64,000 nt of DNA from a virus (IMGVR_UViG_3300011114_001049:1-64000), one strand, 5' to 3'; shown: positions 10,160 through 26,686, counted from the stretch's first letter. Notes: generated by a model not told the origin, from the letters alone. Numbers and translations are program-made.

Positions 10160-10945
10160 TTTTCCTGGGGGATTTTTTTATGGCATAAGAGGGGTCACTT
10201 CCCAGGGTCTAGGGGTATTAAAGAATAGCGCGGCGCGCGCACCTGCGGGAGTATACACCACGGAGCTACCCCAGTGTACAAGAGGTCCAGGTGGAGACTC
10301 CCCTGGTCCAAGAGTTTTTGGCGCCCGGCGGGAGGTCACATCACCAGGGCCAGGGGCCCTATAGTTACAAAATTTAACTTGAAAATCACCTAGCTAGTCT
10401 ATCTAGCCTGTCTAGCCTGTCCTGACAGGCGCTCGGCCAGACGGTCCCAGGGGCCTCCAGGCAGGCCAGGGGCTCGGTACAGGCACTAATCTCGCCCAGG
10501 GCGCCGACTGCCGGTCCCCAGGGTAGGTTTCTACCGGCCTGCATGCGCTAGCCTGTCTAGTATAGCCTGTTGACCGGGTCTCTGTGGCGCAGATTGGCTA
10601 GTTATGTCTACTTGGATACCCTGGGGACCGGGTCTCTGACTAGGTAACCGCCTGCAGAGATCGGATAGAAGCTTATCATGCTTAGAAATCGGTAAATTAC
10701 CGGCGGTTGGGATTACGCTTAGCCTGATTCCTAGCACTGTTGCAGGTCTCAGATAAAGTTTAGCGATAAGTATACAACGGATCGGTATATTGGTTATATT
10801 TATAGATTGGTGAGTAGTGAAACCTGTGTATAGACCAGGTAAGATTATATCAGGGTGTTAAGGGTCTCTGCTGCAAGGAGACCTGTGCAGACTGCTAGGC
10901 GTTGGCTATGCTTCGGTATATTTTGGTATATAAGTTAACGCTTAG
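10160..10945. other. GC-rich non-coding region with short repeats near the switch of gene orientation
   Basis: No credible ORF; CTAGCCTGT, CCCAGGG/CCCTGGG and GGTCTC repeats; composition unlike flanking genes. Confidence 0.7.
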
Positions 10946-11449
10946 CTAGTTGCTACCGTGGTGTCGGTGTCTCTCTTCTCCTCCGTGTCTTGCCCTGTCT
11001 GATTCTCTATAGTGGTGACCAGATTGATTCCTATCGTAACCGCTAGACTTATACCAGGCAGCATCCTTTAGGTAGACTGCAGCGACTGCTGTAATTCCTA
11101 AAGCTAGTGCAACCCCGCCTGAGATAAACATTGCGGCTGGAACAATAGCTAGACCAGCAACGGGTCCGACTCTTGTTATTATCTTGTCTATGATTGACCT
11201 GACCTTGAATTCCTGATCGCTCATCTCGCTAGGATTAGCACCGAAGCTTTCTCCTTCTAGTTCTAGACTAACCAACTCTTCAAATCCTGCTGGATCCGAT
11301 TGCAGGTAATCTGCAAGTATCTCCTTTTCGCGAGGGCCTAAGTCTTCTACTGCAGACTGCGCAGTTATGGTTACTTCCTGTTCGGTTGCATCGTCTCCAT
11401 GGCGAGACTCGTTTATGAATTGAAGGAATGTTCGGGTAGCTAGTTTCAT
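10946..11449 (-). CDS. Hypothetical protein with hydrophobic hairpin (MKLATRTFLQFINE)
   Basis: ORF, late promoter at about 11471, VGPVAGLAIVPAAMFISGGVALALGITAVAAVY. Confidence 0.75.
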   Translation of the reverse strand: MKLATRTFLQFINESRHGDDATEQEVTITAQSAVEDLGPREKEILADYLQSDPAGFEELVSLELEGESFGANPSEMSDQEFKVRSIIDKIITRVGPVAGLAIVPAAMFISGGVALALGITAVAAVYLKDAAWYKSSGYDRNQSGHHYRESDRARHGGEERHRHHGSN

Positions 11450-11682
11450 TTGATCTTGTTTTTTATAGGTTTATTTATCATTACCTCTTTAAGAAATAAG
11501 CGCAGAGACCTGTACCTATTTTGCTATACTAGCTATTTTCCATAAGAGAAGCTGCTTCTTATTTTAAGTAAACCTCAATTATATTTATATCTTTGGCTCC
11601 GGTCTCGTAAATATATTTTAGGAAAAGCATTACCCATTTGGATATTATGGTTATATTTACTTATAACTTAAAACTTAAAGAA

Positions 11683-11817
11683 ATGAAAACTTTATTAAAC
11701 TTATTATTACAATTTATGGGATTAGCAATGGTTGCTTTTGGTAATAGCCTAGGTCTGTTACTACTTATACCAGCCTTCGTTCAATTGGTTAGAATGGACA
11801 TGGCTGAAGAGAGCTAA
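11683..11817 (+). CDS. Small hydrophobic early protein (44 aa)
   Basis: MKTLLNLLLQFMGLAMVAFG... between promoter 11652 and a terminator; below ORF-track cutoff. Confidence 0.7.
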   Translation: MKTLLNLLLQFMGLAMVAFGNSLGLLLLIPAFVQLVRMDMAEES

Positions 11818-11835
11818 CGGTCACTAATTTAGGAG

Positions 11836-11864
11836 AGGGTCGGCTTATGTCGGCCCTTTTTTTG
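11836..11864 (+). terminator. Rho-independent terminator
   Basis: AGGGTCGGC-TTAT-GTCGGCCCT + T run. Confidence 0.85.
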
Positions 11865-12104
11865 TGAGGTTAGTTTAGTAAACATCTGTTATATCTAATT
11901 GGCTATGGTCTCTTAGCTTCAGATTGGATACGTATTGGCCATGGTCTCTTAGCTTCAGAGACCCCGTCAACTAGATTAAGCTTGCTGGTTACTTGGAAAA
12001 ATAGATTGGATTTATAGGACGAGGTCTCTAAGATTTATTTCCTAAAACGCATTACCCATTTGGATATTATGGTTATATTTACTTATAACTTAAAAACAAT
12101 TAAC

Positions 12105-12350
12105 ATGAACTTAAAACAGGTATCACCTACAGTATTGCGCTCTAGGTTAAAGAACGAAGTAATTCAGTTTGCTTTTAAAAAGGTAGACGGCTCGTTGAGA
12201 ACGGCAGTCGGAACAACTAACTTAAGTACGATTCCAGTAGAGAGTCATCCTACTGGTAAGCGTGAAGCTTCTGAAAAACAGGTTAACTTCTTTGACTTGG
12301 AAAAGAAGGAATGGAGAAGCGTAAGTTCCTCACGTGAAATATACATCTGA
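12105..12350 (+). CDS. SH3 beta-barrel/WYL-like (DUF2693-type) small protein
   Basis: FAFKKVDGSLRTAVGTTN...FFDLEKKEWRS; paralog of 19322-19570. Confidence 0.75.
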   Translation: MNLKQVSPTVLRSRLKNEVIQFAFKKVDGSLRTAVGTTNLSTIPVESHPTGKREASEKQVNFFDLEKKEWRSVSSSREIYI

Positions 12351-12511
12351 TGAGCATTTTAAAATTCAGTGATGGAGTCCAGATAGATACTTCTGGGCCC
12401 ATCAGATCGCTCCACCTAGCCGACGGTTGGTATGTTGTAGGTAACGGTTTTTTAATTCCAGTAAAGGATGAGGTTGACGCTGAGCTCGTGATTAAGAAGC
12501 TTACGGGTTAG
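12350..12511 (+). CDS. Small hypothetical early protein (53 aa)
   Basis: MSILKFSDGVQIDTSG... coupled to the upstream gene by a TGATG overlap. Confidence 0.7.
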   Translation: MSILKFSDGVQIDTSGPIRSLHLADGWYVVGNGFLIPVKDEVDAELVIKKLTG

Positions 12512-12532
12512 TATAAATCGGGATAGTGTTAG

Positions 12533-12556
12533 GGGCAGGCGAGAGTCTGCCTTTTT
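12533..12556 (+). terminator. Rho-independent terminator
   Basis: GGGCAGGC-GAGA-GTCTGCCT + T run. Confidence 0.85.
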
Positions 12557-12760
12557 GGTTTAATGAAGTTTACTCCGTAGTAGGATCCACGCTGCAGGTT
12601 GGGGTCTCTAAGAATTCCACAGAGACCCGATCCACTGGATCTTTGCACCCGATTCCAGGAATCTTGCACTGTCTAGGTGGTCTCGCAAATATATTTTAGG
12701 AAACGCATTACGGATTGGAGTATTATAGTTATATTTACTTATAACTTAAAAACTTGATAT

Positions 12761-12940
12761 ATGAATAAGAGAAAACAAATTGAAAAGGCAGAAGCATTCC
12801 TAAAGCTTTATGGATTTACCCAAGAAGATTATGTAGTTTCCCTACAGGGTCCCACTATAATTCTCTCGATTAGTGGTAATCAAAAGATGGATGGAAACCT
12901 AAAGAACGAATTATTAAACATAGGTATGCTGATCCTGTAA
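12761..12940 (+). CDS. Small hypothetical early protein (59 aa), paralog of the 14830 N-terminus
   Basis: MNKRKQIEKAEAFLKLYGFTQEDYVVSLQGPT... Confidence 0.7.
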   Translation: MNKRKQIEKAEAFLKLYGFTQEDYVVSLQGPTIILSISGNQKMDGNLKNELLNIGMLIL

Positions 12941-12953
12941 TAAAAGTTTAAGT

Positions 12954-12979
12954 AAGCCGGTTTAAATACCGGCTTTTTT
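12954..12979 (+). terminator. Rho-independent terminator
   Basis: AAGCCGGT...ACCGGCTT + T run. Confidence 0.8.
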
Positions 12980-13157
12980 AGCACGTAACTTTGCAGGTCT
13001 CTGAAGTGTAGAGACCCCGTCTACTGGATTAATTGTTTTAACACTTGGAAAAATAGATTGGATTTATAGGACGAGGTCTCGCAAATATATTTTAGGAAAC
13101 GCATTACGGATTGGAGTATTATAGTTATATTTACTATATAACTTAAAAACAAACAAC

Positions 13158-13295
13158 ATGAAAAAAGATTTGGTTTTAATCGCGTTTCAGGTATGGGCAG
13201 CTGCACTAATGTTGATACTTGTAGTTTCAATCGGATATGCTGTTTGGTCGGTATGTACGGGTAACTATTCGGGCACCGCTTGCCGAGAGTTTTAG
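13158..13295 (+). CDS. Small single-TM early protein (45 aa)
   Basis: MKKDLVLIAFQVWAAALMLILVVSIGYAVW... after promoter 13126. Confidence 0.7.
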   Translation: MKKDLVLIAFQVWAAALMLILVVSIGYAVWSVCTGNYSGTACREF

Positions 13296-13369
13296 ATAAC
13301 TTCCATCGTGAGTAAGGGTCCTGCTGAAGGGCCCTTTTTAGTTTTAGGATAATTTAGTATAATAACAAT

Positions 13370-14167
13370 ATGAAAGAAGAAATATACGAGCAGATAGGGA
13401 GTCTGTGTAGAGCAAAAAACCTAGGCACAAGTTATCGTAACACAGATAAGCCAACCCCTCGTGTCCAGTGGATCGAGACTCTGCTCCAAAGATTAGGCAT
13501 AGCCTATGAGCTGGACGAATGGCACCGCACCAGTGGTCAGCGTTGCTGGAACATCTATATACACTCCGTAGTAGAGAGTCCGATCGTAATCATGGCTCAT
13601 CACGATATTGTAAATCCAGCGAGTGATAATGCGAACGATAACTCAGCTTCAATAATCAATGCGATTGCAACCAAACTGCAGAGACCAGAAGTCATGCTAG
13701 TCTTGACCGATGGAGAAGAAGTCGGCGGACTAGGCGCGGCTCGTTATGCAAAACTTGTTCTGAATAGATTATTACCTCGACCCGTTTGGGTACTCAATTT
13801 CGAACTTACGGGTCGAGGCGGTAAGAGCTGGTTTATCGGTGATAATATAGAAGGTCCGCTGAAGAGATATCTAGTAGAGGAGCATGGCGCGGAGCTAGTC
13901 AGTGTTCCGTTTAACGATTCAGTTATAATGCGGAGAGAAGGTATTGACTCTTGCGTAATTAACCCGTTGCCAAAGGACGAGCATGGAAAGTTTGAATTAT
14001 GGCGGTTAGGAGTATGTCATAGCCTAGCCGACACAGTCGATGAGGTCTCCACTGGGGAGATGAAGGAATTTGTTGAAGAGGTAGTTTTACCGATTATCGA
14101 CGGTTGGAAAAGACCAGCGGTTGGGCGATGGGCAAAGATCTTGAAGTGGTCCCGGTCTCGCAAATAA
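13370..14167 (+). CDS. M28-family zinc peptidase
   Basis: AHHD, ANDNSAS, TDGEEVG, NFE and C-terminal HSLADT metal-ligand motifs. Confidence 0.85.
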   Translation: MKEEIYEQIGSLCRAKNLGTSYRNTDKPTPRVQWIETLLQRLGIAYELDEWHRTSGQRCWNIYIHSVVESPIVIMAHHDIVNPASDNANDNSASIINAIATKLQRPEVMLVLTDGEEVGGLGAARYAKLVLNRLLPRPVWVLNFELTGRGGKSWFIGDNIEGPLKRYLVEEHGAELVSVPFNDSVIMRREGIDSCVINPLPKDEHGKFELWRLGVCHSLADTVDEVSTGEMKEFVEEVVLPIIDGWKRPAVGRWAKILKWSRSRK

Positions 14168-14237
14168 GTTTTGGGGAACGCATACAACGAATATCCAAAT
14201 TGGTTATATTTACTTTTAACTTAAAAACTTTAAAACT

Positions 14238-14576
14238 ATGAAACTAATAAAAGACCTAGGTCCAAGCTACTTCATCTTTGGTAACAAGGGTAACGTGTGG
14301 AGTAACACCGCACACGCCTACAAGTCAGGTAAAGGTAACCTATGTAATACCCCAGCCTTAAGTACTAATCACGCTAGAATCGAGGGAATAGATGAAGTAG
14401 GTTGTCCGCGCTGTCTAGAAGAGATCGCTAAACTTAGGGACTGTTCTATTTGTGGAGAGTCCTATGGAAGGTACGGTAACACTGCAGAACCAGTAAACGG
14501 CGGTAGATGTTGCGACTCATGCAACCTAGAGAAAGTAATTCCTGCAAGACTCATCGCAGCCTTCAATAGCAATTAA
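14238..14576 (+). CDS. Cys-rich zinc-finger hypothetical protein
   Basis: CPRC, CSIC...GRCCDSCN. Confidence 0.7.
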   Translation: MKLIKDLGPSYFIFGNKGNVWSNTAHAYKSGKGNLCNTPALSTNHARIEGIDEVGCPRCLEEIAKLRDCSICGESYGRYGNTAEPVNGGRCCDSCNLEKVIPARLIAAFNSN

Positions 14577-14829
14577 GTATTTTAAATATACATTTTACAA
14601 AGAAAAGGGTTCCAACAGTGAGCCCTTTTTTTGCGTCAAGTCACTCCGTAGTGTACACCTAGCAGGTCTGCACAGGTCTCTCAAGACCAGAGACCAGTAT
14701 GGATTAAACAACTATGCGGACACTTGCCTAACCAGTGCAGTTGACCTGTGTCTCCCAACTATATTTTATGAAGGGTATACAACAGATACCCTAATTGGTT
14801 ATATTTAACCTTAACTTAAAATACTTACT

Positions 14830-15243
14830 ATGAATAAGAAGATCGAAAGGATTGAAACACTTCTAGAAGATTATGGATTTACTAATAAAGATTATACTAT
14901 TTCCTTACCTGGTCCAACACTACTCTTTGCGAGGAGCGGACAGATTAAACTTAAAAAAATAAAGGTGTGTCGACTTATTTTTCCAGCCCGTCTAGACAGG
15001 GTAGGGTCTCATAGATATATTTTTAGTAATGTGTACAGCGCATTCCGAATTTGGTTATATTTACTTAATAACTTAAAAACAGAAAGTATGTATTCACTAG
15101 ACTGTAATTATTACACAAAGGAGTTCTCAACCATTGATGAGCTTTTGGGAGACGTTGTCACCAACGGAATGGACCCCAACTACGAGATCACACGCAACGG
15201 CCAACCTACTGGCGAGATGGCGATTGACCTGATCGAATTTTAA
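14830..15243 (+). CDS. Apparent fusion: truncated paralog of 12761 read through a promoter element into a 51-aa gene (15088-15243)
   Basis: Promoter element 15005-15080 lies inside the ORF; own ATG at 15088 (MYSLDCNYY...). Confidence 0.65.
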   Translation: MNKKIERIETLLEDYGFTNKDYTISLPGPTLLFARSGQIKLKKIKVCRLIFPARLDRVGSHRYIFSNVYSAFRIWLYLLNNLKTESMYSLDCNYYTKEFSTIDELLGDVVTNGMDPNYEITRNGQPTGEMAIDLIEF

Positions 15244-15413
15244 TTTCCTGTATTATCCAGGCGCGAGGGCAGGTGGAGACGCTTGCCCTTTTTCTTGTAC
15301 TTGATTCCGGGAATCTTGTCTAGTTGTGCGGGTCTCTAAGATTTATTTTCGTAAACGCATACAACGTATTTGGATAATGGTTATATTTACTATATAACTT
15401 AAAAACAAACAGT

Positions 15414-15632
15414 ATGAAAAATCTTAGAGAAAAGTATGAAAATGCCAGAGCTCTCTTAAAAGCCGGCAAACGTGAAGAGGCAAGCGCTCTCCTTAATTTT
15501 GGAATCTACCAATTGGCTAGCGCTACTTTAGAAGGAATTCCTCAAGATCAAGTCGTAGAGGGAGCAACTGTCGATCGCTGGAAGGAACGCTTCTGGTTCG
15601 AGTTAGAAGCCAACGACCTGTTGGAAGGGTAG
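15414..15632 (+). CDS. Hypothetical early protein
   Basis: 72 aa between promoter 15382 and terminator at about 15649-15673. Confidence 0.75.
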   Translation: MKNLREKYENARALLKAGKREEASALLNFGIYQLASATLEGIPQDQVVEGATVDRWKERFWFELEANDLLEG

Positions 15633-15728
15633 TCGATAGGACTCCAGTAAGGCTCGAGAAATCGGGCCTTTTTTGTAAACCTATTTAGAGACATGAGTAT
15701 AATAGGAATATAAACTTATATTTAAAAA

Positions 15729-16019
15729 ATGGACTCTCGATTTGAAGAACTATATCAGGAACTTATGGAAGTTGAGGTAGACAAGAAAGGGTCTCCCATC
15801 TTTTACTGGCGGCTCGACGAGGAGTACTGTGTCAGGTGGGAGGAATCACTGGTTTATTATAACGATCGCTGGGATTTACTCCGTAGAGAAGCTTTAAGTC
15901 ACCTTAACGAGCTTGACGAATTAGAGCGTCGTTTCTTAGAGACAGAAGACTACGAACGATGCAGCACGATACGAGACCTTCGCGAAAAGTTAAAGTCTGA
16001 ATATGCAGCCTGGTGCTAA
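15729..16019 (+). CDS. Hypothetical protein with UVR (UvrB/C-like) coiled-coil motif
   Basis: FLETEDYERCSTIRD. Confidence 0.65.
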   Translation: MDSRFEELYQELMEVEVDKKGSPIFYWRLDEEYCVRWEESLVYYNDRWDLLRREALSHLNELDELERRFLETEDYERCSTIRDLREKLKSEYAAWC

Positions 16020-16159
16020 GGGTCTCCCAACTATATTTTCCTAGTTTTGAATTTTGTATTAAGAAAAAAGGGTTGCAAAGCTCTCGCAAAAAAAGTAGAT
16101 AAAAATTGTTATTTGTTATATTTTTTAGTTATATTTAACTATAACTAAAACGCAGAAAG

Positions 16160-16366
16160 ATGGACAAGAAAGAAAAAGATACAGATATTAAAATCATGGC
16201 AGAGTGTCGACCGTGGTCATCTCTCACCTGTGGCTCGCTCAGGGCAATGATGACTATATGTAAGAATCGTGGCTTAAAATATTATGATTCGGGAAAAATA
16301 GCTAAATGGGTAAATAACAACGAGCTCTCGATACTCCTGGAACGGGAGCTCGCGTCTCGCAACTAG
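16160..16366 (+). CDS. Hypothetical early protein
   Basis: 68 aa after promoter 16130. Confidence 0.65.
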   Translation: MDKKEKDTDIKIMAECRPWSSLTCGSLRAMMTICKNRGLKYYDSGKIAKWVNNNELSILLERELASRN

Positions 16367-16368
16367 TG

Positions 16369-16530
16369 ATGAAAAAGATAGAGGCAACTATGCAGGAAAT
16401 ATGGGCGGCAACTCGACCTGTAGTACAGAAGAACAAGAAGAAGTATTCACGTAAAAAAAAGAAAGAAGATGATTGGAAAGAAGAACCTATTAAGAACTCA
16501 GTCAGAGACAGAGGGCATGACCAAGATTAG
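16369..16530 (+). CDS. Small basic protein (53 aa)
   Basis: MKKIEATMQEIWAATRPVVQKNKKKYSRKKK...; below ORF-track cutoff. Confidence 0.55.
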   Translation: MKKIEATMQEIWAATRPVVQKNKKKYSRKKKKEDDWKEEPIKNSVRDRGHDQD

Positions 16531-16708
16531 TGGCGTTTGTGTTTTTACTAATGAGTGGTATGAATGTGAAATACCAACAGATGGACTTGAGAGTTGGCTC
16601 AACGGTCAGCCTATACAGACCGCGCTGCCTACAGTATCTCGCGATGTCCGTGAATTCCTGATCTCAGGAATATCTCCTACCGGTTGGGACAAGACTTTCG
16701 GTAAGTAA
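16517..16708 (+). CDS. Hypothetical protein
   Basis: MTKISGVCVFT...REFLISGISP; start reassigned. Confidence 0.65.
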   Translation: MTKISGVCVFTNEWYECEIPTDGLESWLNGQPIQTALPTVSRDVREFLISGISPTGWDKTFGK

Positions 16709-16959
16709 TAGTTTGTTTTAAGTTAGAGACACTGGGTCGGCGTAAGCTGGCCCTTTGTTGTTTTACTCCGTAGTAAACCCCTGCCCGCCTAGGCCAGGTA
16801 GAGACCCCTTCACCAGGCTGCAGGATCCCAATTTGCGTATAAATATTTTTTAAAATCAAGGTTGGATTTAGAGGACGCTGTCTCGCAAAAAAGTTTTAAC
16901 AGAATTTTCAGGTGTCAATTATTTTGGTTATATTTACTTATAACTTAAAAACTTAAAAT

Positions 16960-17148
16960 ATGAACTCAATGTCAACAGGAGAAATCAGAGCAGAGCTCGT
17001 AGAATTAATTAACGGCGGTATATTAAACGTACCTAACCTTGTTAAATTCTTTAAGACGAATCGTCCAGGTGCTAACCTAGTAACGGTTAAGGAAGAAGCA
17101 AAAGAGATAGTCGCAGAGGTAAAAATGGTAATAAAAAGAGGATACTAA
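16960..17148 (+). CDS. Hypothetical early protein
   Basis: 62 aa after promoter 16929. Confidence 0.7.
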   Translation: MNSMSTGEIRAELVELINGGILNVPNLVKFFKTNRPGANLVTVKEEAKEIVAEVKMVIKRGY

Positions 17149-17151
17149 ATC

Positions 17152-17523
17152 ATGACAAGAGAACAAAGAAACAAGGCAATCCAAAGATTGGAGCTATTAG
17201 AATTAAGGTTAGATGGACTTAGTGCATTATCATATAATGTATCAGACAAAGGTGGCATAGAGCTCTTAAGCGTCATCGACGAGACAAAGGCAGAGCTTGA
17301 CCTTTTAGAAAAAACTCTAGCAACCAAATGGGAGTTCCTTTTCAATTTCAAAAGCGGTGGCTGGAATTCAGAAGTAGCATTTACCCGAGAGGAAGCTATC
17401 GAGCAGGCAATTGCCAAATATGGTCAACCTTCTGAAGACCATAAAGTATTAAACATCGATGTCACCTCGTTTAGAGTGTCAACGACCCATGACAAGGCAG
17501 GTTTACTATCCCTATTTCATTAA
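17152..17523 (+). CDS. Hypothetical early protein
   Basis: 123 aa followed by terminator at about 17540-17566. Confidence 0.7.
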   Translation: MTREQRNKAIQRLELLELRLDGLSALSYNVSDKGGIELLSVIDETKAELDLLEKTLATKWEFLFNFKSGGWNSEVAFTREEAIEQAIAKYGQPSEDHKVLNIDVTSFRVSTTHDKAGLLSLFH

Positions 17524-17735
17524 GTAATAAGTATATAAGAAGAGCGAGAATTATCTCGCTTTTTTTATGACCAGTGGAAAGGCGTCTCCCAAAATTATTA
17601 GAGACCGGTGTAGTCCAGCAGATTCCTTGGAAAAAACAGACCGGCTCCAGTGGATGGAGTCTCTGAAAAACTTTTCAACAGGATTGTTAAGTATGAAAAA
17701 GATTGGTTATATTTACTTATACTTAAAAACTAAAC

Positions 17736-17954
17736 ATGATACGCGCTAAACAGGAAAAGAAAGGACCCATAGTTATTGACTTAACTGGACCTGACGGTAA
17801 TGCATATTCCCTTATAGGAAGAGCTAAGGACTTCGCAAGACAACTAGACTTAGATGCTGCTGTAATTACTAAAGAAATGATGGCAGGAGATTACGAGAAT
17901 CTAATAGCAGTATTTGATAATTACTTTGGTTCTTTTGTAATACTTGAAAGATGA
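17736..17954 (+). CDS. Phage hypothetical protein (IDLTGPDGNAY)
   Basis: 72 aa after promoter 17708. Confidence 0.75.
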   Translation: MIRAKQEKKGPIVIDLTGPDGNAYSLIGRAKDFARQLDLDAAVITKEMMAGDYENLIAVFDNYFGSFVILER

Positions 17955-18175
17955 TACCAACTACCAAACAAGAATGGTGGAGTCTAGTTAGACAAGACTT
18001 AGCCAAATGGAACTTAAAAAATCACCAAGATGATAGAATGAGCATAGGTGATTGGATAGGCGAAGTGGGTCCTAACATACATGGATGGATTGCTTTTAGA
18101 GATCGCTATGGAGATTGGGATGTGTCATTGACTGGCTATGAAGATTCTGATGATGATGAAGATGAAAAGAACTAA
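17951..18175 (+). CDS. Hypothetical protein with acidic tail
   Basis: ATGA overlap with the upstream gene. Confidence 0.65.
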   Translation: MIPTTKQEWWSLVRQDLAKWNLKNHQDDRMSIGDWIGEVGPNIHGWIAFRDRYGDWDVSLTGYEDSDDDEDEKN

Positions 18176-18182
18176 ACACGCT

Positions 18183-18479
18183 ATGGATTTTTGGATAGAA
18201 AATAAAGTATTAAAAACCTGGCTTAGTTCTAGGGAGATCGAATACCGTGTCATTGCAAGCGACGTGATTGACGGAGATCTAAACCCAGTCACTGGCGAAT
18301 GGTTGATAGTAAGAAGCGATGGGCTCGTCTACTCGCTGAACGCTAGACTCTTTATGAATATTCATTATTCTACAAAAGGTGTACGAGCAAGATGGAGTGG
18401 AGACGATGTGCGCGTGCTCGAATCCGATAACACTACTAGGATTTACAACTATCGAGGTTTCTTAAAGAGAGTAATGTAG
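18183..18479 (+). CDS. Hypothetical protein
   Basis: ORF, start reassigned to MDFWIE; terminator at about 18521-18546. Confidence 0.6.
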   Translation: MDFWIENKVLKTWLSSREIEYRVIASDVIDGDLNPVTGEWLIVRSDGLVYSLNARLFMNIHYSTKGVRARWSGDDVRVLESDNTTRIYNYRGFLKRVM

Positions 18480-18667
18480 TAATAAGATCTTCTCAAACAG
18501 TACTTCTTAATTTGACAGACGAAGGTCGGCTCCAGCTGACCTTTTGTTGTTTACTCCGTAGTCCAGTTATCTGTCCAGTGTACCGGGTCTCTAAGAAATA
18601 TTTTCAACAGGATTGTCAAGTATAGAAAGAATTGGTTATATTTACTTATAACTTAAAACTAGAAGAC

Positions 18668-18841
18668 ATGATTAAAGCAAAGATTAAAGACTTAAGAACA
18701 AAGCAACCAAAGATAGGTGACCATGTGGAGTTCACTATCGACCTGGAGACACTGACTGATGAGGTCGTTTATGTAAACGGCAATATCATTGAAGGTAAGA
18801 AGTGGGACCTAAGTTACATAAAACTAACGATAAAGAAATGA
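18668..18841 (+). CDS. Small hypothetical early protein
   Basis: MIKAKIKDLR... after promoter 18637. Confidence 0.65.
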   Translation: MIKAKIKDLRTKQPKIGDHVEFTIDLETLTDEVVYVNGNIIEGKKWDLSYIKLTIKK

Positions 18842-19227
18842 AGATACTACTTGAAACGGAGGAGGCTGAAAACTTCTTCTATAATTCTCTATGTAATGGG
18901 CTGACTGAGTTACGCTATTATAACTTAGAGCTTGATTACAAAGCCGCTGATTATGCGGCTGCTGCTAAAAAACTGAAGAAGACTGAGCAGTCGGTTTGTT
19001 ATGAAGACGTGCTCATGCAGATCTTACGCGACGGTAAGAAGCTTTCCATTATAGACGATGGGTATGATGGCGAGTATTCAGTGTCTATTACCCTTGCTGA
19101 CGTGCATGAGAGAGTAGCCTTGACTCCACTTAGTCACCTAATGGATGCAGTCAACGAGACAGACGACGCAGTTACTGCCGACTGTATATTACAGACAGTC
19201 TTCTTTAAAGAAATTGTTTTTGGTTAG
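18838..19227 (+). CDS. Hypothetical protein
   Basis: MKILLETEEA...DAVTADCILQTVFFKEIVFG; ATGA coupling. Confidence 0.7.
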   Translation: MKILLETEEAENFFYNSLCNGLTELRYYNLELDYKAADYAAAAKKLKKTEQSVCYEDVLMQILRDGKKLSIIDDGYDGEYSVSITLADVHERVALTPLSHLMDAVNETDDAVTADCILQTVFFKEIVFG

Positions 19228-19321
19228 AGCCGGGTGCACAGGTCTCGCAAAAAAGTTTTCAACAGGATTGTCATGGTTAAAAAGAATTGGTTATATTTAC
19301 TTATACTTAAAAACTTAAAAC

Positions 19322-19570
19322 ATGAACCTATTACCAACAACACACGACGAACTTAAAAGAGTACTAGCGCAGCGTATTGTACAGTTCGCTTTCAGAAAAC
19401 TAGACGGCAGTCTACGCACCGCAGTAGGTACGACTAATTTATCTAACGTCCATGTGGACCATCACCCTAAGGGTGTGCGAGAGAGCTCACCTAAAGTGGT
19501 TGTTTACTTTGACATAGAGAAGAAGGAATGGAGAAGCGTAAGTCGTCGAGTTGACGTGTTTATTGCATAA
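19322..19570 (+). CDS. SH3 beta-barrel/WYL-like (DUF2693-type) small protein
   Basis: FAFRKLDGSLRTAVGTTN...YFDIEKKEWRS. Confidence 0.75.
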   Translation: MNLLPTTHDELKRVLAQRIVQFAFRKLDGSLRTAVGTTNLSNVHVDHHPKGVRESSPKVVVYFDIEKKEWRSVSRRVDVFIA

Positions 19571-19603
19571 CTAATAAAATAAAAACTGATAAACTAAAAT
19601 AGC

Positions 19604-20092
19604 ATGGGACTAGACATAATAGCAATAAGTAAGATAGTAAAGGTAGATGGCGAGGGCGGAATAAGAGTCGGAGCTGATCCGGAGTTTAACCGTGTAGAGA
19701 TTGAACCTGGAGAATACGACAGGTCTGAAGAGTCTGAGGAGCACTCCTTTCGGGCAGGCCCCTACTCTTACTATAACAGGTTCCGCGAGACACTGTCGAT
19801 GTCGATGCATGGGATAATGCCAATGCAGATATGGAATGCGGTCAACGAGTTTAAATTTGAGAACACCGCGTTTATTGAGATGATTGACTTTTCAGACTGT
19901 GAAGGTTGCATAGGGGCTGAGATAAGTAATAAGTTATATCATGATTTTGCAAATAACCGTCACCGATTTAAGGAATATATTGATAGCCAAGGTTGGGAAG
20001 AGGAGAAGATAGTAGACTACCTTGAAGTATATGAAGATTTTATGAAAGCCTTTGAGATAGCTGGCCGAGGAGGTATCGTTATCTTTCATTAG
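19604..20092 (+). CDS. Phage hypothetical protein (MGLDI...FSDCEG)
   Basis: 162-aa ORF, terminator at about 20123-20147. Confidence 0.75.
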   Translation: MGLDIIAISKIVKVDGEGGIRVGADPEFNRVEIEPGEYDRSEESEEHSFRAGPYSYYNRFRETLSMSMHGIMPMQIWNAVNEFKFENTAFIEMIDFSDCEGCIGAEISNKLYHDFANNRHRFKEYIDSQGWEEEKIVDYLEVYEDFMKAFEIAGRGGIVIFH

Positions 20093-20268
20093 GCTAGAAG
20101 AAGTTGTTTTAAGTTAGAGACGAGGGTCGGCGCAAGCTGGCCCTTTGTCGTTTTACTCCGTAGTAAACCTTACTACTGGGTGCAAAGGTCTCTCAAACTT
20201 TTTATGGCAGGATTGTCATGGTTAGGAGTAATTGGTTATATTTACTTATAACTTAAAAACAAAAGCAG

Positions 20269-20511
20269 ATGACTAAAGAAGAATTTAAAGCAGGCGTTCT
20301 ATTCCTAATCAACGTAAAGAACGATTTCCAATTTGATTATAATAGCCCAGGATATTTAGGATTCCTCAACTGTGGAGAGGATATCACAGACGATCCAGGA
20401 TTTATGATAGTTGTCAATAATCAGGAAGAGTTTGAGCCAATCTTGAGTGGACTGAGGCTTACCACAGAAGAAGGTATCAACGCAGAAGAAACAGTATTCA
20501 TTCTAATCTAA
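20269..20511 (+). CDS. Acidic small early protein
   Basis: 80 aa after promoter 20237. Confidence 0.7.
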   Translation: MTKEEFKAGVLFLINVKNDFQFDYNSPGYLGFLNCGEDITDDPGFMIVVNNQEEFEPILSGLRLTTEEGINAEETVFILI

Positions 20512-20521
20512 AACAGGACCC

Positions 20522-20728
20522 ATGGAAGAAAAAATCTTAGATACCCTAAAGAAACTTAAAAGAGAGAAGAAGTACATCGCTCTTCAATTACATCCAGCGA
20601 TTGGCCACACAACTATTGAGAAGGAAGGAAATACTCTTCGTATCAATGAAGGAAGAGACGGCAAATTCGAAGGGGTAAGCGAGTCTTTCTATGACGAGAT
20701 GGTAAACCAGTTTGATTCACGAAACTAA
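20522..20728 (+). CDS. Hypothetical protein
   Basis: 68-aa ORF in operon. Confidence 0.65.
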   Translation: MEEKILDTLKKLKREKKYIALQLHPAIGHTTIEKEGNTLRINEGRDGKFEGVSESFYDEMVNQFDSRN

Positions 20729-20733
20729 ACGCT

Positions 20734-20889
20734 ATGGACTTTTACAAATGTAAACAATCAGGAGACGTATTCACTGAGGACGAGATGTTAGACGAAGTAG
20801 ATGGGGATGATAACTTAGATTCTTTCTACCTCATCGGCGATTTTGAGACACATGAAGAAGCAGAACAATTTCTAAAAACACTAAGATGA
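20734..20889 (+). CDS. Very acidic small protein (51 aa)
   Basis: MDFYKCKQSGDVFTEDEMLDEVDGDDNLDSF...; fills the gap, ATGA coupling to the next gene. Confidence 0.65.
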   Translation: MDFYKCKQSGDVFTEDEMLDEVDGDDNLDSFYLIGDFETHEEAEQFLKTLR

Positions 20890-21119
20890 CACAAGAACAA
20901 GCACAAGTAGTAGCACAAATCTTAGAGAGATTTGATTTTGATAAGGTACTTAAACACATGCAATCAGTAGATTGGAAGTGGTTCGATGAGGTGCCTGATA
21001 TGGATGATATTAAAGGTACCGCAACTCGACTTCTAGTCGAAGCTCAAATGGACCCGCAGGATGTTGTGTCAATGGGAACAGGCGGATTCAGAGTTTATAA
21101 ACTTCCTTGGGGATTATAG
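20886..21119 (+). CDS. Hypothetical protein (FDFDKV...GTGGF)
   Basis: 77 aa; frame continues 11 codons beyond the TAG. Confidence 0.7.
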   Translation: MTQEQAQVVAQILERFDFDKVLKHMQSVDWKWFDEVPDMDDIKGTATRLLVEAQMDPQDVVSMGTGGFRVYKLPWGL

Positions 21120-21252
21120 CTTACTTTCTCCATCCAACGAAGTGGAAGCTTCTAGCCTGGCAGCGGGCCGCGTCTCTTAACTTTTTATCCCGCCCAATTG
21201 TCAAGATTAGAAAAGATTGGTTATATTTACTTATAACTTAAAGACCCATAAG

Positions 21253-21678
21253 ATGTTAACACTTAAACTAGGGAATAATCTACACATATGTAATAATCAA
21301 GTTATTAGTTATTACACTGTAGTTGCGACCATTGCTGCTGACCAGATCATAGTACACGGTAAATGGAGTAGGACTACTACTAAACACCTAAACGAGGTCG
21401 CTAGAGTCACGAGGTCGTCATTAGTGCAAGAGAAGAGAGTATGCGATACTGACTGGTTACCGTATGGTGTAAATGTCAAGTTAACTGACTCGCTCTCAGT
21501 CAAGAGCTCACTGCTTATTGCTAGTAAATTAAACCATACGTTCGGCATGATTGGCGCGATTGCTTCTAATTGGGACAAGATTAACAAGAAGGATAAGAAT
21601 CTAATCTATGAAGAGCTTAGAGCAGACGACGAGTTTAGGATGATGATTCAATTGGTGGAAGATAACTTTCCGCTGTGA
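21253..21678 (+). CDS. Hypothetical early protein (SYYTVVA...WSRTTTKH)
   Basis: Start reassigned downstream of promoter 21222. Confidence 0.7.
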   Translation: MLTLKLGNNLHICNNQVISYYTVVATIAADQIIVHGKWSRTTTKHLNEVARVTRSSLVQEKRVCDTDWLPYGVNVKLTDSLSVKSSLLIASKLNHTFGMIGAIASNWDKINKKDKNLIYEELRADDEFRMMIQLVEDNFPL

Positions 21679-21763
21679 GCGGTCTCGCAAAAAAGTTTGG
21701 GACCAGATTGTACTTGTATTAGATAATTGGTTATATTTACAGTGTATAAAAAAAATAAAAGTT

Positions 21764-21985
21764 ATGAAAATTAAATTTTTGAAAGATTGTTATATTGAAG
21801 TATGTGTTGGTTTTGATAGTGAAGAAGAACCAATAATGGAAGAGGAGAAAATAGTTGAAGGCGAAATGTTTGAAGTAGAAAAAATTGTATATAACATTGT
21901 TGAAACAGAATTTATCCAAGTTCAATTTGAGGATGGTTCAGTTGGATTTATTAATAAAGATTTATTTGAAGTAATAGAGGAATAA
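21764..21985 (+). CDS. Very acidic small early protein
   Basis: 73 aa, Glu-rich, AT-rich coding sequence. Confidence 0.7.
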   Translation: MKIKFLKDCYIEVCVGFDSEEEPIMEEEKIVEGEMFEVEKIVYNIVETEFIQVQFEDGSVGFINKDLFEVIEE

Positions 21986-22107
21986 ACCTATTAAAAAGGC
22001 TTTCGTATATTAGCGTATAAAGAAAGAAGAATAAAAAGTTATTGACAGGATTGTACATTGTCGAAACAAATAGTTATATTTACTTATAACTTAAAAACAT
22101 AAAGATT

Positions 22108-22572
22108 ATGAAAACAACACACACGATTTGGGGCATACTCGATGGAGACGGCCCACTAAAAGGAATTAGATTTGGAGCAAGTACTAATGCACTTAACTTC
22201 GAAGTATCACAAGACACAGACGACGGTACCTATCCTAGGCTCTGTGATTATATGCGAGATATCAACGCATTAGAGAACGAAGGGGCAAGTCACTTCCTAA
22301 ATAGACTTACCCGAAAGAAGAACAAGTTGAAGATAGCATACGAAGGCGTGACTATTATTAGAGATTCTAAGTGGAGCACCGATGCTGTACTTGAATTCAA
22401 GGAACCGATCGATGTAGTATTAGGTAAAGTCGGCGAGAGTCTCATCATAGGGAAGGTGCAGCGTATCAAAGGAGAGTTCGATCACGACTACTTCTGGACC
22501 AAGAACGGTCGCCAAGACAAGGTAGCAAACGGTTATGAGATATGGTTCAAGATAGAAGAATACCTAGCCTAG
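22108..22572 (+). CDS. Hypothetical early protein
   Basis: 154 aa after promoter 22075. Confidence 0.75.
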   Translation: MKTTHTIWGILDGDGPLKGIRFGASTNALNFEVSQDTDDGTYPRLCDYMRDINALENEGASHFLNRLTRKKNKLKIAYEGVTIIRDSKWSTDAVLEFKEPIDVVLGKVGESLIIGKVQRIKGEFDHDYFWTKNGRQDKVANGYEIWFKIEEYLA

Positions 22573-22650
22573 TGCACAGGTCTCGCAAAAAATGTTGACC
22601 AGATTGTACCAGTATAAAAGAATTGGTTATATTTACTTATACAACAATTG

Positions 22651-24156
22651 ATGACTATGGAAAAGATACAGATAAAGCAGATTCCAGCCGAGTACGTGGC
22701 AAGAGCAAAAGGAACCGTCTACGATAGAAAGAGATTAGCCGGCCTGCGTGAACTACCTGAAATAGTAGTTAGTCGTTTATCGCAAGACCGGTCGCTTACT
22801 GTTTTAAAGGAGGTTGCTCTTCGTACTGACCTTACACTAGAACAGGTGAAGACACTAAACTCGCCGTCTAATATAGTAAACATGTACGAGCTTAGACGAA
22901 GCCTATTTCGTAATCATAGCATAAGTCACGATTGTGTAAAGTACCTGATTAGAGAGGAAGGTTTAGTTGAATCTGTAATCTTAGCTAACCCAAACATAAA
23001 GGCTAAAGAGTTTATTGGGATCGTGAAGGAGCAGATTGAATTAGAAAGAAGTCGTTACTCCGTAGATAGAATAATAAAGTCAGCGTTCTCTAATCAAGGG
23101 ATAGGTAATACTGTACTCATTGCTCTTTTAGAATTTTTGAAAGATTGTTATCACATAAAGTCAGAGCACAATTATGAAAGTCTAGTTCAAATACTCGTTA
23201 CTCACAACGATTCGCTTACTCCTCGGTCGATTGAATGGTTGTGGAAGCATGCAAATACTCGAATAAAGAAGAGAGGTGGTATCCAGTCTAAGCCACTTAT
23301 TAAATGTATAACAGCTCACCATAACTGTAGTGATGAACTCATTAATAAAATCATATTAGGATTAGAGGATGAGTACGTTGGCGACCTGTTTGGGTATGCG
23401 CAAGTAGAGATTAGAGAGAGTTATGTTGCAAGTAGAGAAGTCGTAAATTTACTGGCTCCACTATGTATCAATGGAACTGACCAAGTGATTAAGAATACTT
23501 CCATATTTATTGCTAATCACATGGGAGAGGTTGAGCTTACTGACAGCATAACACAGCAGCTTATCTCAATTAGAGATAAAGAAGTTCAACTTGCTTTGCT
23601 AAAGAATGGAGTCCTTGCTGGCACTAGCCAAGAACGTGAAGCAGTTGATATTATAGTATCGTCTACTGACGAATTGGAGAGAGAGGAATGGAGGTACCTA
23701 GAAAATTCTAATTTAATTACAGAGGATCACCTGATAGCCCTGACTTCACATCGTTCTTGGAGAGTTCGGCAGCTTGTAGCTGAGTCTACTCGAGTTCCTT
23801 TAGCTCAACTTGAAGTACTTGCAAATGATGGCGACTCAGACGTAGTCAGAAGTGCCACGCAGAATGGGAGATACCACCTGGTAAAACACTCCGTAGAGTA
23901 TCAAAGAAGAGCAGAGTTAAACTGTGTAGCTATGGCAAGAATACATAGGGCATGTAGCGAAACGATTGAGGCAATCGCGGCTGACTCCTATGCTAAAGAA
24001 TACACCGGCTTTTCAGAATTCGGCAAAGCGATAGAACTGTTAGCCTCGCCTGAATTCTCAACTTTCATTGAAACATTCAGCTATAAAGATCGCAGAGAAC
24101 TAATGAAAGATGGCATTGACCTAGCTACTTTAAATCTTCTTAGTCAATTTTTTTAA
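22651..24156 (+). CDS. Alpha-solenoid (LRV/HEAT-like) protein
   Basis: ~500 aa; SWRVRQLVAESTRVPLAQLEVLANDGDSDVVRSA. Confidence 0.7.
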   Translation: MTMEKIQIKQIPAEYVARAKGTVYDRKRLAGLRELPEIVVSRLSQDRSLTVLKEVALRTDLTLEQVKTLNSPSNIVNMYELRRSLFRNHSISHDCVKYLIREEGLVESVILANPNIKAKEFIGIVKEQIELERSRYSVDRIIKSAFSNQGIGNTVLIALLEFLKDCYHIKSEHNYESLVQILVTHNDSLTPRSIEWLWKHANTRIKKRGGIQSKPLIKCITAHHNCSDELINKIILGLEDEYVGDLFGYAQVEIRESYVASREVVNLLAPLCINGTDQVIKNTSIFIANHMGEVELTDSITQQLISIRDKEVQLALLKNGVLAGTSQEREAVDIIVSSTDELEREEWRYLENSNLITEDHLIALTSHRSWRVRQLVAESTRVPLAQLEVLANDGDSDVVRSATQNGRYHLVKHSVEYQRRAELNCVAMARIHRACSETIEAIAADSYAKEYTGFSEFGKAIELLASPEFSTFIETFSYKDRRELMKDGIDLATLNLLSQFF

Positions 24157-24229
24157 CAGGATTGTCAAGTATAGAAAAGATTGATTATATTTACTAAGAA
24201 CAAATGGTATAACTTGAGTATAAGATAGT

Positions 24230-24538
24230 ATGCAACCTACTGATAATCAAATGAATGATCGAAGTATTCCCTGCTTTAGCTTGGGAGCCATGGATGTAAG
24301 TTCATTTACGACAACTCATCGTGCACTTATCTCAAGCGCAGTAGAGTCGGCAGTATACTGGGCAGTCTCGAATAAATTAGAAGAAGTAGAAGTATTTGAA
24401 ATAAAGGAATTGGACGTCGTCTTCTCATTAAAGAAGGAGGAATTTAGGACAGCATTAAACGGCTGTATTGAATACTCAATATCAATAGAAGATTACGAAA
24501 AGTGCGTAGCTATTAATAAACTAAAAACTAATTTATGA
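24230..24538 (+). CDS. Hypothetical protein with C-terminal UVR-like motif
   Basis: YSISIEDYEKCVAINKL. Confidence 0.65.
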   Translation: MQPTDNQMNDRSIPCFSLGAMDVSSFTTTHRALISSAVESAVYWAVSNKLEEVEVFEIKELDVVFSLKKEEFRTALNGCIEYSISIEDYEKCVAINKLKTNL

Positions 24539-24762
24539 GTAAGCAGAGAGCATTAGGATTTAAAAAGATTGCATGTAAAAAATGTAACGAACTCGTAGAC
24601 AAGGTAGACGAGCAGGCAGAATCAATAACCTGTAGCAAGTGTGTTCAGACTGAACTACGCGGATACCCTGATATCACTCGTGAAGAGTGGTTTAGATTAG
24701 ATACGATACGTAAAGAGAAAGAGCTTGAATTAGAAGAGTCTGCTTCTGGCAAAGAAGAATAA
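24535..24762 (+). CDS. Zinc-ribbon hypothetical protein
   Basis: CKKC...CSKC. Confidence 0.7.
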   Translation: MSKQRALGFKKIACKKCNELVDKVDEQAESITCSKCVQTELRGYPDITREEWFRLDTIRKEKELELEESASGKEE

Positions 24763-24837
24763 AAAGTTATTGACAGCATTGTACATTGTCGAAACAAATA
24801 GTTATATTTACTACATAAACCAATAAAACTAAAGATC

Positions 24838-25557: not shown

Positions 25558-25612
25558 TCCATAGCTGTAGAGAGTCTCAGCTTTTAATAATAAACATTTA
25601 CTCCGTAGTAAG

Positions 25613-26437: not shown

Positions 26438-26439
26438 CC

Positions 26440-26601: not shown

Positions 26602-26686
26602 GGGTCTCGCAAAAGTTTTTCCGCAGGATTGTCAAGATTAGGGAATTATAGTTATATTTACCTATAACCAATTAAACTTAATAAAG

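Follow-up and report, generated by a model that had tools for sequence, protein, structure and literature searches.

Recombined cassettes with predicted early promoters in an uncultured phage with a T4-type portal, with a GGTCTC box as a recurrent joint

The closest described systems come from T4-type phages, whose hyperplastic regions hold the PeSL (promoter-early stem-loop) cassettes reported by Arbiol et al. (2010, PMC2839356) and Comeau et al. (2014, PMC4122927). PeSL crossovers fall at several places inside the motif, and the authors speculated that a short conserved motif (GGGG...CCCC, GGGC) may be a protein target (PMC2839356, PMC4122927). Few routes are documented for the gain and loss of small genes without known function in large lytic phages. 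Recombination at repeated promoter-terminator units is one of them, and accounts of it have so far come from T4-type phages infecting Proteobacteria and cyanobacteria. Deletions and duplications also arise in phage T4 and E. coli between short direct repeats, via slipped mispairing or illegitimate recombination.

We analysed a 64,000-nt stretch of viral DNA (IMGVR_UViG_3300011114_001049:1-64000; hereafter the window), in which a predicted early-gene region occupies 10.7-28 kb. The phage is uncultured, probably infects a freshwater member of the Bacteroidota, and has a T4-type portal (Portal_T4, E=2e-58) whose closest relatives are those of huge uncultured phages and the Prevotella Lak phages. 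The early ORFs mostly belong to no protein family, and gene content varies among relatives. Megablast of the region and tblastn of a 911-aa protein against cultured phages gave no match, an exact search of viral contigs for the spacer block shared by promoters 12679 and 13075 and for module U1 found none beyond the phage's own record, and a search for known RNA families gave none.

Between 10.7 and 27.9 kb, about 25 copies of a predicted promoter element each lie 20-30 nt 5' of the ATG of a small ORF (Table 1). In every cassette a (G)GTCTC box is followed by an A/T-rich block, then by a spacer block that may or may not carry a -33 TTG, by the core box TTATATTTAC and, after an A-rich leader, by the small ORF; a terminator often, though not always, closes the unit. 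The A/T block occurs in two or three recurrent variants, and the spacer block occurs in a few types that span both promoter families, namely family A (10.7-15.4 kb), which lacks the -33 TTG, and family B (16.9-27.9 kb), which has ATTGT at -33. Terminator-like hairpins stand 5' of many, though not all, promoters at a variable distance. Some spacers carry extras: a ACTCCGTAG box, a GGTCTCT/AGAGACC palindrome or one of three upstream modules. The ACTCCGTAG word is strictly one-stranded.

Bacteroidota sigma-A promoters have the -7 consensus TAnnTTTG, a -33 TTG and an A-rich leader lacking a Shine-Dalgarno (SD) sequence (PMC6847099, PMC9723704). The array core, TAtaTTTa, resembles this -7 consensus at 7 of 8 positions, the last being A instead of G; the -33 TTG is found only in family B, and the leaders are A-rich and SD-less. 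A sigma-70-type -35/-10 promoter was not matched by the array elements, and a sigma-70 scan scored barely above its shuffles. From the consensus we infer that the array elements are early promoters, with transcripts predicted to start some 12 nt past the first T of the core box.

Table 1. Positions in the window of the predicted promoter elements and neighbouring features
Feature	Coordinates	Strand	Remarks
Whole array, ~25 co-oriented promoter cassettes	10745..27900	+	
e11601, predicted promoter element (hexamer, A/T block, spacer block, core, leader)	11601..11682	+	precedes ORF 11683-11817
e12023, predicted promoter element	12023..12104	+	precedes ORFs 12105-12350 and 12350-12511
e12679, predicted promoter element	12679..12760	+	precedes ORF 12761-12940; first 61 nt as in e13075
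e13075, predicted promoter element, three-part mosaic	13075..13157	+	precedes ORF 13158-13295
e14154, predicted promoter element	14154..14237	+	hexamer within 3' end of M28-like ORF 13370-14167
e14749, predicted promoter element	14749..14829	+	hexamer variant TGTCTC; small hairpin in spacer
e15005, predicted promoter element	15005..15087	+	within open frame 14830-15243; precedes ATG at 15088
e15331, predicted promoter element	15331..15413	+	precedes ORF 15414-15632
Upstream module U1	11991..12022	+	identical copy 13043-13074; related copy ~16848-16878
Upstream module U1, second copy	13043..13074	+	L056 keeps only the last 21 nt
Upstream module U2	12648..12678	+	related copy 15303-15330
Palindrome GGTCTCT-N7-AGAGACC	11943..11963	.	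36-nt tandem duplicate of left half at 11898-11933, 5' of palindrome
Palindrome, hexamer + complement	12603..12627	.	
Palindrome, hexamer + complement	12996..13016	.	
Palindrome, hexamer + complement	14675..14695	.	
Intrinsic-terminator-like hairpin	12531..12554	+	after ORF 12350-12511; ACTCCGTAG box then at 12572
Intrinsic-terminator-like hairpin	15265..15290	+	after ORF 15088-15243
Promoter block without hexamer	22025..22086	+	61/62 nt match to 24753-24814
IS607-TnpA-like protein, N-terminal HTH + resolvase domain, without nucleophile serine	30131..30823	-	adjoins array; conserved in relatives

The look-alike early promoters are real patchworks. An earlier note on this DNA had described promoter 13075 as resembling 12023 to the left of its GGTCTC and 12679 to the right, and both likenesses were borne out. 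On the left, 13010-13080 aligned with 11957-12028 in 65 of 75 columns, without a mismatch over the final 38 nt, hexamer included (32 nt of identity upstream of GGTCTC). On the right, the 61 nt from the hexamer on were identical to 12679-12739, followed after a 1-nt indel by a further 14 identical nt; the median identity of this 61-nt block among the eight family-A promoters compared was 0.68. The note had also seen 15331 begin like 12023 and continue like 14154, and we found the same (18/18 nt for the head, then 13 nt). Taken whole, e13075 combines an upstream module like that of 12023, a promoter block like that of 12679 and a core and leader like those of 15331, e15331 joins a head like 12023 and a middle like 14154 to a core and leader like 13075, and e11601 resembles 12679 for its first 25 nt and is identical to 12023 in the remainder.

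In trio tests restricted to sites at which the two putative parents differ, 13075 agreed with 12023 at 24 sites and with 12679 at 2 upstream, and at 0 and 14 downstream (Fisher p=5e-9). The counts for 11601 were 7:0 and then 0:6, with the switch at about +25 (p=6e-4), and those for 15331 were 6:0 and then 2:7, with the switch at about +18 (p=0.007); the run of concordant polymorphic sites in 15331 was not significant alone (p=0.19). Pairwise values were used in place of a global Sawyer-type permutation test, which was uninformative because one pair is identical. Block linkage (both blocks match/either matches) had a value of 0.54 within the upstream flank, compared with 0.19 over the hexamer, 0.11 from the A to the B block and 0.08 over the core, values that we take as a trend only since they depend on thresholds and gapless registers. 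The 13075 junction of module, hexamer and A block recurs in L055/L056. The 62-nt block shared by 22025 and 24753 has the same limits as the 12679/13075 block, with the hexamer absent.

Comparison of the strain-level relatives L055-L057 (88-99% identical) with one another and with G000, and of G001 with G003, revealed gains, losses and replacements of cassettes. Even genomes with 97-99% identity differed in the presence of whole cassettes; where identity is 70-85%, divergence blurs the junctions. Indels and replacements bounded by the promoter units had their junctions in the hexamer, the spacer block and the core or leader. About one third of the mapped junctions lay within 5-14 nt at the hexamer. 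For at least five clean events, the joined partners had nothing in common at the junction except the hexamer and 0-7 nt more (geneX in L055/L056 vs L057, the four-cassette block at 16879, and events b, i and l of G001 vs G003), and four more junctions had one end at the hexamer. Of the remaining junctions, some fell in the core or leader (G000's own geneX loss, events a and j) and others roughly at -25 to -31 relative to the core, in an upstream module, at a terminator stem or in coding sequence. Between L056 and L055, which are 99% identical, the junction lay 21 nt upstream of the hexamer, and one replacement began directly after the right arm of a hexamer palindrome.

These results bear on the earlier note's proposal that the cassettes were shuffled by recombination located at the hexamer or beside it. 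The whole-cassette differences and the clean hexamer junctions uphold it in part, but an exclusive or site-specific process is not supported. Breakpoints scattered along the element, which the note had named as speaking against its proposal, were in part what we found: 11601 and 15331 switch 25 and 18 nt inside the promoter, and several kinds of junction lie away from the hexamer.

Some preference for the hexamer is suggested by the five clean cassette indels for which both flanking promoters are known. In four of these the crossover lay in the 5-14 nt hexamer island, and an identical core island of 10-31 nt about 45 nt away was left unused. Under a length-proportional model we estimated p ~0.02 for this preference, from a small sample and with a test picked once the data were known. 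The longer island is the one that ordinary homologous recombination would be expected to use, and the hexamer may therefore be favoured by something else, be it a break, a bound protein or selection keeping promoter with gene.

The hexamer also looks like part of the promoter. The window contains 54 copies of GGTCTC where 19.6 would be expected, and the word hardly occurs outside the early region (plus strand, 26 copies in 10.5-28 kb vs 10 in the remaining 72 kb). Within the promoters, (G)GTCTC is the outermost conserved block, at 49±1 or 59±1 bp from the core. GTCTC was present within the 24-nt upstream window of 80 of 105 core boxes in G000, G001, G003, G005 and G007, at spacings of 49 (61 cases), 59 (15), 58 (7), 50 (9) and 48 (7). 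Information content 5' of it is approximately zero, the flanking upstream sequence not being conserved. In the L079/L074 sister clade a different fixed box occupies its place, and this replacement, together with the fixed, 10-bp-phased distance from the core, suggests that the hexamer is probably a protein contact site. Because related phages keep it at a fixed place in their predicted promoters, identity would end at the hexamer anyway.

Palindromes of the hexamer and its complement stand in five spacers of the window and are absent from many others. They are weak (-5 to -7.5 kcal/mol) and lack a T run. We rejected them as structured RNA, as there is no covariation, the stems being invariant while the loops vary. 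GGTCTC is also the word of BsaI/Eco31I, a type IIS site; cutting and religation there was rejected for 13075, where the 'right' parent supplies the base that follows the hexamer and the two 4-nt overhangs would not be the same.

We favour, with some reserve, PeSL-like shuffling of regulatory cassettes in which the hexamer is a favoured short joint. Copies within a genome, and co-infecting relatives, would trade cassettes and promoter parts by recombining within short islands common to every copy, namely the hexamer, the beginning of the spacer block, and the core with leader. A crossover in the hexamer would move a complete promoter-plus-gene unit and would therefore be the commonest joint, while crossovers further in would yield chimeric promoters such as 11601, 13075 and 15331. 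We suspect that the enzymes are those with which the phage recombines or replicates its DNA in general, acting here on microhomology. The use of the short hexamer island in four of the five clean indels, despite the longer core island nearby, speaks against this reading.

Several other explanations have to be weighed against this. One dispenses with recombination and lets convergent selection and common descent reuse functional sub-motifs, as the recurrent A/T-block variants and the few spacer types spanning both families might suggest; the 18-nt head common to 15331 and 12023 is not significant alone. We give it very little credence, as the identities of 61/61, 47/47 and 38/38 nt cover positions that vary freely elsewhere and have unrelated flanks, and it is contradicted by the indels between genomes 97-99% identical. 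Just as improbable is an assembly artefact in which different strains or loci were joined at repeated promoters. The sequence was assembled from a metagenome, its 61-nt promoter blocks are repeated exactly, and a 4,317-nt circular contig of cassettes from a sister clade may be a graph loop. Against this, the hexamer junctions share just 5-14 nt, under assembler word sizes, the composite 13075 junction is also present in the independently assembled L055 and L056, and G003/G004 and G005/G006 are colinear across samples. Unlikely, but far less remote than these two, is a break or block targeted to the hexamer that stimulates ordinary recombination, making the hexamer a hotspot and not a recombinase site; a nuclease, a bound protein stalling replication or cruciform cutting at the GGTCTCT/AGAGACC palindromes could be the cause. 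This would fit the excess of hexamer junctions over what island length predicts, the palindromes in five spacers with the one replacement that starts beside an arm, and the near confinement of the hexamer to the early region. No nuclease was identified, the 100-kb record gave no match to a GIY-YIG domain, many junctions lie elsewhere, and the palindromes are weak.

A dedicated integron-like or transposon-like system, in which a GGTCTC-recognising recombinase excises and inserts hexamer-to-hexamer units, seems a little less likely than the hotspot. In its favour, direct hexamer repeats flank the cassette indels with crossover intervals of 5-8 nt, the inverse hexamers in the palindromes recall core and inverse-core sites, and the array ends with a conserved IS607-TnpA-like gene in G000, G003, G005/G006 and G007 (that it is missing from G001 is uninformative, as the G001 contig ends before the expected place). 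Its product has an HTH_17 domain at residues 1-38 and a Resolvase domain at 58-161, its best solved relatives are MJ0014 and ISC1926 TnpA, and the orthologues retain the DRLxR motif. At the nucleophile serine of Y-x-R-V-S, by contrast, G000 has Gly, and G003, G005 and G007 have Ala, Pro and Ala; a serine recombinase is thus unlikely to be the enzyme, as the nucleophile is absent in all four orthologues. This protein was the sole candidate, and no active recombinase was found. Neither a tyrosine recombinase nor a Y1 transposase was found in the record; PF00589 had no match in its 100 kb (a fragment), while control genomes matched. The unconserved sequence 5' of the hexamer, junctions at at least five other kinds of position, the promoter block duplicated within the same limits in the hexamer's absence, and the helically phased distance expected of a transcription element also speak against a recombinase site. 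We regard as slightly more doubtful still the specific version in which GGTCTC and its inverse copies are the crossover site of a dedicated cassette exchange, a phage 'integron' with a promoter per cassette and a non-canonical enzyme, perhaps the serine-less IS607-like protein. The CTAG-rich repeats at both edges of the array were considered as recombinase sites, and no shared repeat was found.

PeSL-like shuffling, our preferred reading, would extend the exchange of cassettes to a distant lineage with predicted Bacteroidota-type promoters, with junctions resolved to the nucleotide from natural strains. It also goes beyond the known picture in that a 5-6 nt edge box serves as joint with a frequency similar to, or above, that of a 25-30 nt identical core, which raises the question whether exchange is purely homology-driven. 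The hexamer, the box that replaces it in the sister clade and the one-stranded ACTCCGTAG are testable regulatory signals in a phage group with no cultured member.

Among known systems, integron gene cassettes (attC x attI, IntI) share with the array co-oriented rows of small genes, a short conserved boundary core and inverse copies in palindromes. The array differs in that the record shows no tyrosine recombinase, each cassette carries a predicted promoter and often a terminator of its own where integron cassettes are promoterless and read from a common Pc, many spacers lack palindromes and the junctions are not confined to the core sequence. Like the short-repeat deletions and duplications of T4 and E. 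coli, the array has end points in direct repeats of 5-14 nt; unlike in those events, the same repeat, a conserved functional element at each cassette edge, is reused. In PeSL regions, as here, repeated composite units with a strong early promoter (a predicted one in the array) precede small genes without known function in phages with T4-type structural genes, close relatives vary by insertion, deletion and replacement of the genes between units, and crossovers fall at several places in the unit with no dedicated recombinase known. Excised mini-circles, produced when flanking motifs recombine, are another PeSL trait, for which the one lead here is the 4,317-nt circular contig of cassettes. PeSL promoters are of the sigma-70 type, whereas those of the array resemble the Bacteroidota type (a TAnnTTTG-like -7 box, no Shine-Dalgarno). 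The terminator is part of the PeSL motif; in the array, the terminator-like hairpins appear to be a separate part, at a variable distance from many but not all promoters. The array also has extra modules (the three upstream modules, the palindrome and ACTCCGTAG), and, unlike in PeSL, a 5-6 nt box at the upstream edge of the promoter is its commonest joint.

The window comprises positions 1 to 64,000 of an IMG/VR virus record 100,274 nt long. At 10.7–27.9 kb it carries ~25 plus-strand copies of a single element, a predicted early promoter. In each copy, (G)GTCTC is followed by an A/T-rich block (~18 nt), a spacer block (~24 nt), the core box TTATATTTAC and an A-rich leader, and an ATG lies 20–30 nt downstream of the core. 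The core box agrees at 7 of 8 positions with TAnnTTTG, the −7 consensus of Bacteroidota sigma-A, and the leaders lack a Shine-Dalgarno sequence, a trait of Bacteroidota (PMC6847099, PMC9723704). ATTGT stands at the expected place of the −33 TTG in the copies at 16.9–27.9 kb and is absent there from those at 10.7–15.4 kb, the range covered by the earlier note. Many of the array's small ORFs are followed by a terminator-like hairpin. Some spacers hold extras: the word ACTCCGTAG, the palindrome GGTCTCT-N-AGAGACC (stems invariant, loops variable, folding weak), or one of three upstream modules that directly adjoin the hexamer, GGTCTC.

The phage has a T4-type portal and is most closely related, at 31–36% identity, to huge uncultured phages and to Prevotella Lak phages. 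Its sigma factor is kept at 25–59% identity in 46 viral contigs, some of 250–470 kb. The word ACTCCGTAG has 14 plus-strand and no minus-strand copies, all within the early region (12572–31305). It lies directly 3’ of terminator T-runs or in coding sequence (13563, 15878, 23057, 23888 and 29023), and at 30619 it is antisense within the recombinase-like gene. The word is kept in relatives, with ACTCCCTAG in its place in the sister clade of L079 and L074; it may serve the phage sigma factor as a promoter, mark a site of RNA processing or act as a Chi-like signal.

The order GTCTC, 42–43 nt, core box recurs 14–18 times per phage in four related IMG/VR phages. Across this phage (G000) and its relatives G001, G003, G005 and G007, GTCTC falls within a 24-nt upstream window of 80 of 105 core boxes, where we estimate that one or two would do so by chance. 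The favoured spacings, 49±1 and 59±1 nt, are one helical turn apart. Positions upstream of GTCTC hold no information, and the base preceding it, G in most copies here, varies in the relatives. L079 and L074, which we located via the sigma factor, have the same core box and a different fixed box at the hexamer's place. No conserved part of the promoter lies farther out than the hexamer, which, judged from these sequence patterns, is most likely a protein contact site. Being outermost, it is where similarity between any two spacers starts, whatever the mechanism of recombination.

The earlier note had described promoters as mosaics, and all three of its sequence statements are correct. To the left of its hexamer, element 13075 (elements are numbered by hexamer position) resembles 12023: the 32 nt preceding the hexamer are identical, and the alignment farther out matches in 65 of 75 columns. 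To the right it is identical to 12679 for 61 nt from the hexamer onward, a block whose usual identity within this promoter family is 0.68. At sites that separate these two putative parents, the count is 24:2 upstream of the hexamer and 0:14 downstream of it (p=5e-9). Over its core and leader, 13075 agrees with 15331 for 32 nt, which makes it a three-part mosaic. Element 15331, said to begin like 12023 and continue like 14154, switches within the promoter, ~18 nt past the hexamer start, where the site counts change from 6:0 to 2:7 (p=0.007); the shared head by itself is not significant (p=0.19). Element 11601 likewise switches within the promoter, its counts changing from 7:0 to 0:6 at 25 nt past the hexamer start (p=6e-4). 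In the pair 22025/24753, which has no hexamer whatever and unrelated flanks, 61 of 62 nt agree over a block that extends from −52 to +9 relative to the core and has the limits seen for 12679/13075. The A/T block of 13075 is common to its orthologue in L055, a strain-level relative; the part specific to G000 is confined to −25 to −3 and is identical to 12679. Element 13075 fits a short conversion tract flanked by identical stretches of ~30 nt (left) and ~25 nt (right), and no special mechanism is needed for it.

Searching with the M28-like protein, we found three metagenome contigs (L055, L056 and L057) that are 88–92% identical to G000 and 97–99% identical among themselves; they are syntenic with window positions 9.6–17 kb and differ in cassettes. 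The second comparison pair was G001/G003, at ~80–90% identity. Junctions were read at the nucleotide level, with the hexamer plus 0–7 nt counted as the hexamer class (Table).

Table. Cassette junctions and neighbouring features (window coordinates unless a genome is named; events are cassette differences between G001 and G003; geneX and geneY are cassettes present in some relatives only)
Feature	Position	Strand	Class	Observation
geneX cassette	L057 1855–2238		hexamer	Absent from L055/L056; junction sequence common to both partners only CG + hexamer
Four-cassette block of L055	16879		hexamer	Absent from G000; shared interval 12 nt
Replaced segment	16021		hexamer	Segment downstream of hexamer replaced in G000
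Replacement	11913–12954		hexamer (left), other (right)	Left end at hexamer, right end in terminator stem
Upstream module U1	11991–12022, 13043–13074		hexamer	Identical copies joined to two different A/T blocks (12023 and 13075)
Events b, i, l			hexamer	Cassettes of 776, 819 and 396 nt; shared interval is the pentamer GTCTC
Event g			hexamer	Right end at hexamer
L056 vs L055			other	99% identical downstream; diverge 21 nt upstream of hexamer, within U1
G000 without geneX			other	Junction between core and ATG
geneY cassette of L055			other	Starts ~31 nt upstream of core, ends in coding sequence
Event a			other	In spacer block or core
Event j			other	Stop codon to next ATG; cassette recurs elsewhere in G003, homology from core on
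Sole minus-strand gene within array	10946–11449	−	other	Absent from L055; starts directly after right arm of palindrome; inserted between hexamer palindrome (10863–10883) and lone GAGACC (11505)
Tandem duplication	11898–11963			36 nt, left half of palindrome; gives additional lone GGTCTC at 11907
Peptidase_M28-like protein	13370–14167	+		Largest early ORF; stop codon within A/T block of next promoter; relative in G003 elsewhere, on opposite strand
Open frame, 137 codons	14830–15243			Small gene runs through promoter 15005 into next gene (ATG 15088); also in L055, L056, L057
Sigma-70-family factor	24838–25557	+		Regions 2 and 4; within early region
G+C island	28000–30100			50% G+C vs ~40% nearby
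RecA/DnaB-like AAA ATPase	28809–29891			Within G+C island; downstream, hexamer and complement 31 nt apart (30007–30048)
IS607-TnpA-like protein	30131–30823	−		N-terminal HTH and resolvase domain

The junction of U1 with the A/T block also occurs in L055/L056 and is thus older than the split of these strains. For geneX, the junction in G000 differs from that in L055/L056, so this cassette was lost or gained twice, by different joints. BLAST segments between G001 and G003 agree with the nucleotide-level picture: five begin ≤4 nt from a hexamer, two have their end at a hexamer, and four have theirs in the core or leader. Cassette deletions in the sister clade lie between near-identical promoters of 83–89 nt or in the core. 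Because the 137-codon frame is continuous through promoter 15005, its first gene, a paralogue of 12761–12940 with a further copy near 21943, has no stop of its own. The 4,317-nt contig L073 (IMGVR_UViG_3300009184_005816) has an exact 123-nt terminal repeat and is therefore circular. It holds early cassettes only, is colinear with L079 6271–11316 minus two cassettes, and links a promoter with a gene that lacks one in L079. The contig may represent a mini-circle of cassettes, a tandem duplication or a loop made in assembly through repeats.

By our count, a motif occupying ~5% of a spacer accounts for about one third of the mapped junctions. The excess at the hexamer is real, and other modes exist too. 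The earlier claim that recombination at or next to the hexamer has shuffled cassettes is partly supported; other junctions lie in the spacer block, core, leader, U1, terminator or coding sequence. Linkage of blocks (both match/either matches) within the upstream flank was 0.54; the value was 0.19 over the hexamer, 0.11 from A/T to spacer block and 0.08 over the core. These values are rough, since the variants of the short blocks are few and the spacer block is quick to drift. Among orthologous genes with differing upstream context, the A/T block goes with the gene in the majority of G001/G003 cases; overall it does so in only 4 of 21. For five clean events both flanking promoters are known; four of these used the hexamer island (5–14 nt) and one the core island (10–31 nt). 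If use scaled with the length of the island, we estimate p ~0.02, with n=5 and a test picked after the data were seen.

Modular shuffling of the kind described for the promoter-early stem-loop (PeSL) cassettes of T4-type phages is, by analogy, the best-supported explanation. Recombination would occur between short islands common to the repeated regulatory units; a crossover in the outermost island would move a whole promoter-gene unit, and one farther in would leave a chimeric promoter. That an island of 5–8 nt rivals the core would be explained by a hexamer-directed break or bound protein, by selection for keeping a promoter with its gene, or by a dedicated recombinase. Against the last, the nucleophile serine of the sole recombinase-like gene, the IS607-TnpA-like one, is replaced by Gly, and its orthologues in G003, G005/G006 and G007 (65–67% identical) have Ala or Pro there, with DRLxR kept. 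The gene is conserved next to the array in four relatives, and from these substitutions its product is probably non-catalytic or non-canonical. Searches of the 100,274-nt record found no tyrosine recombinase, Y1 transposase or GIY-YIG domain, which is weak evidence of absence because the record is a fragment. That the joints are assembly artefacts is unlikely, as too few bases are shared at the junctions and the same joints occur in independent contigs.

PeSL cassettes undergo modular shuffling at repeated regulatory units (PMC2839356, PMC4122927). By this analogy the array works like PeSLs and has most of their features: the early-promoter units are repeated, the phage is T4-type, the region varies and holds small genes of unknown function, and indels have the repeated units as their limits. 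It differs from PeSLs in its promoter type, in the loose coupling of its units to terminators, in its additional modules, and in the weight that one short box carries as a joint.
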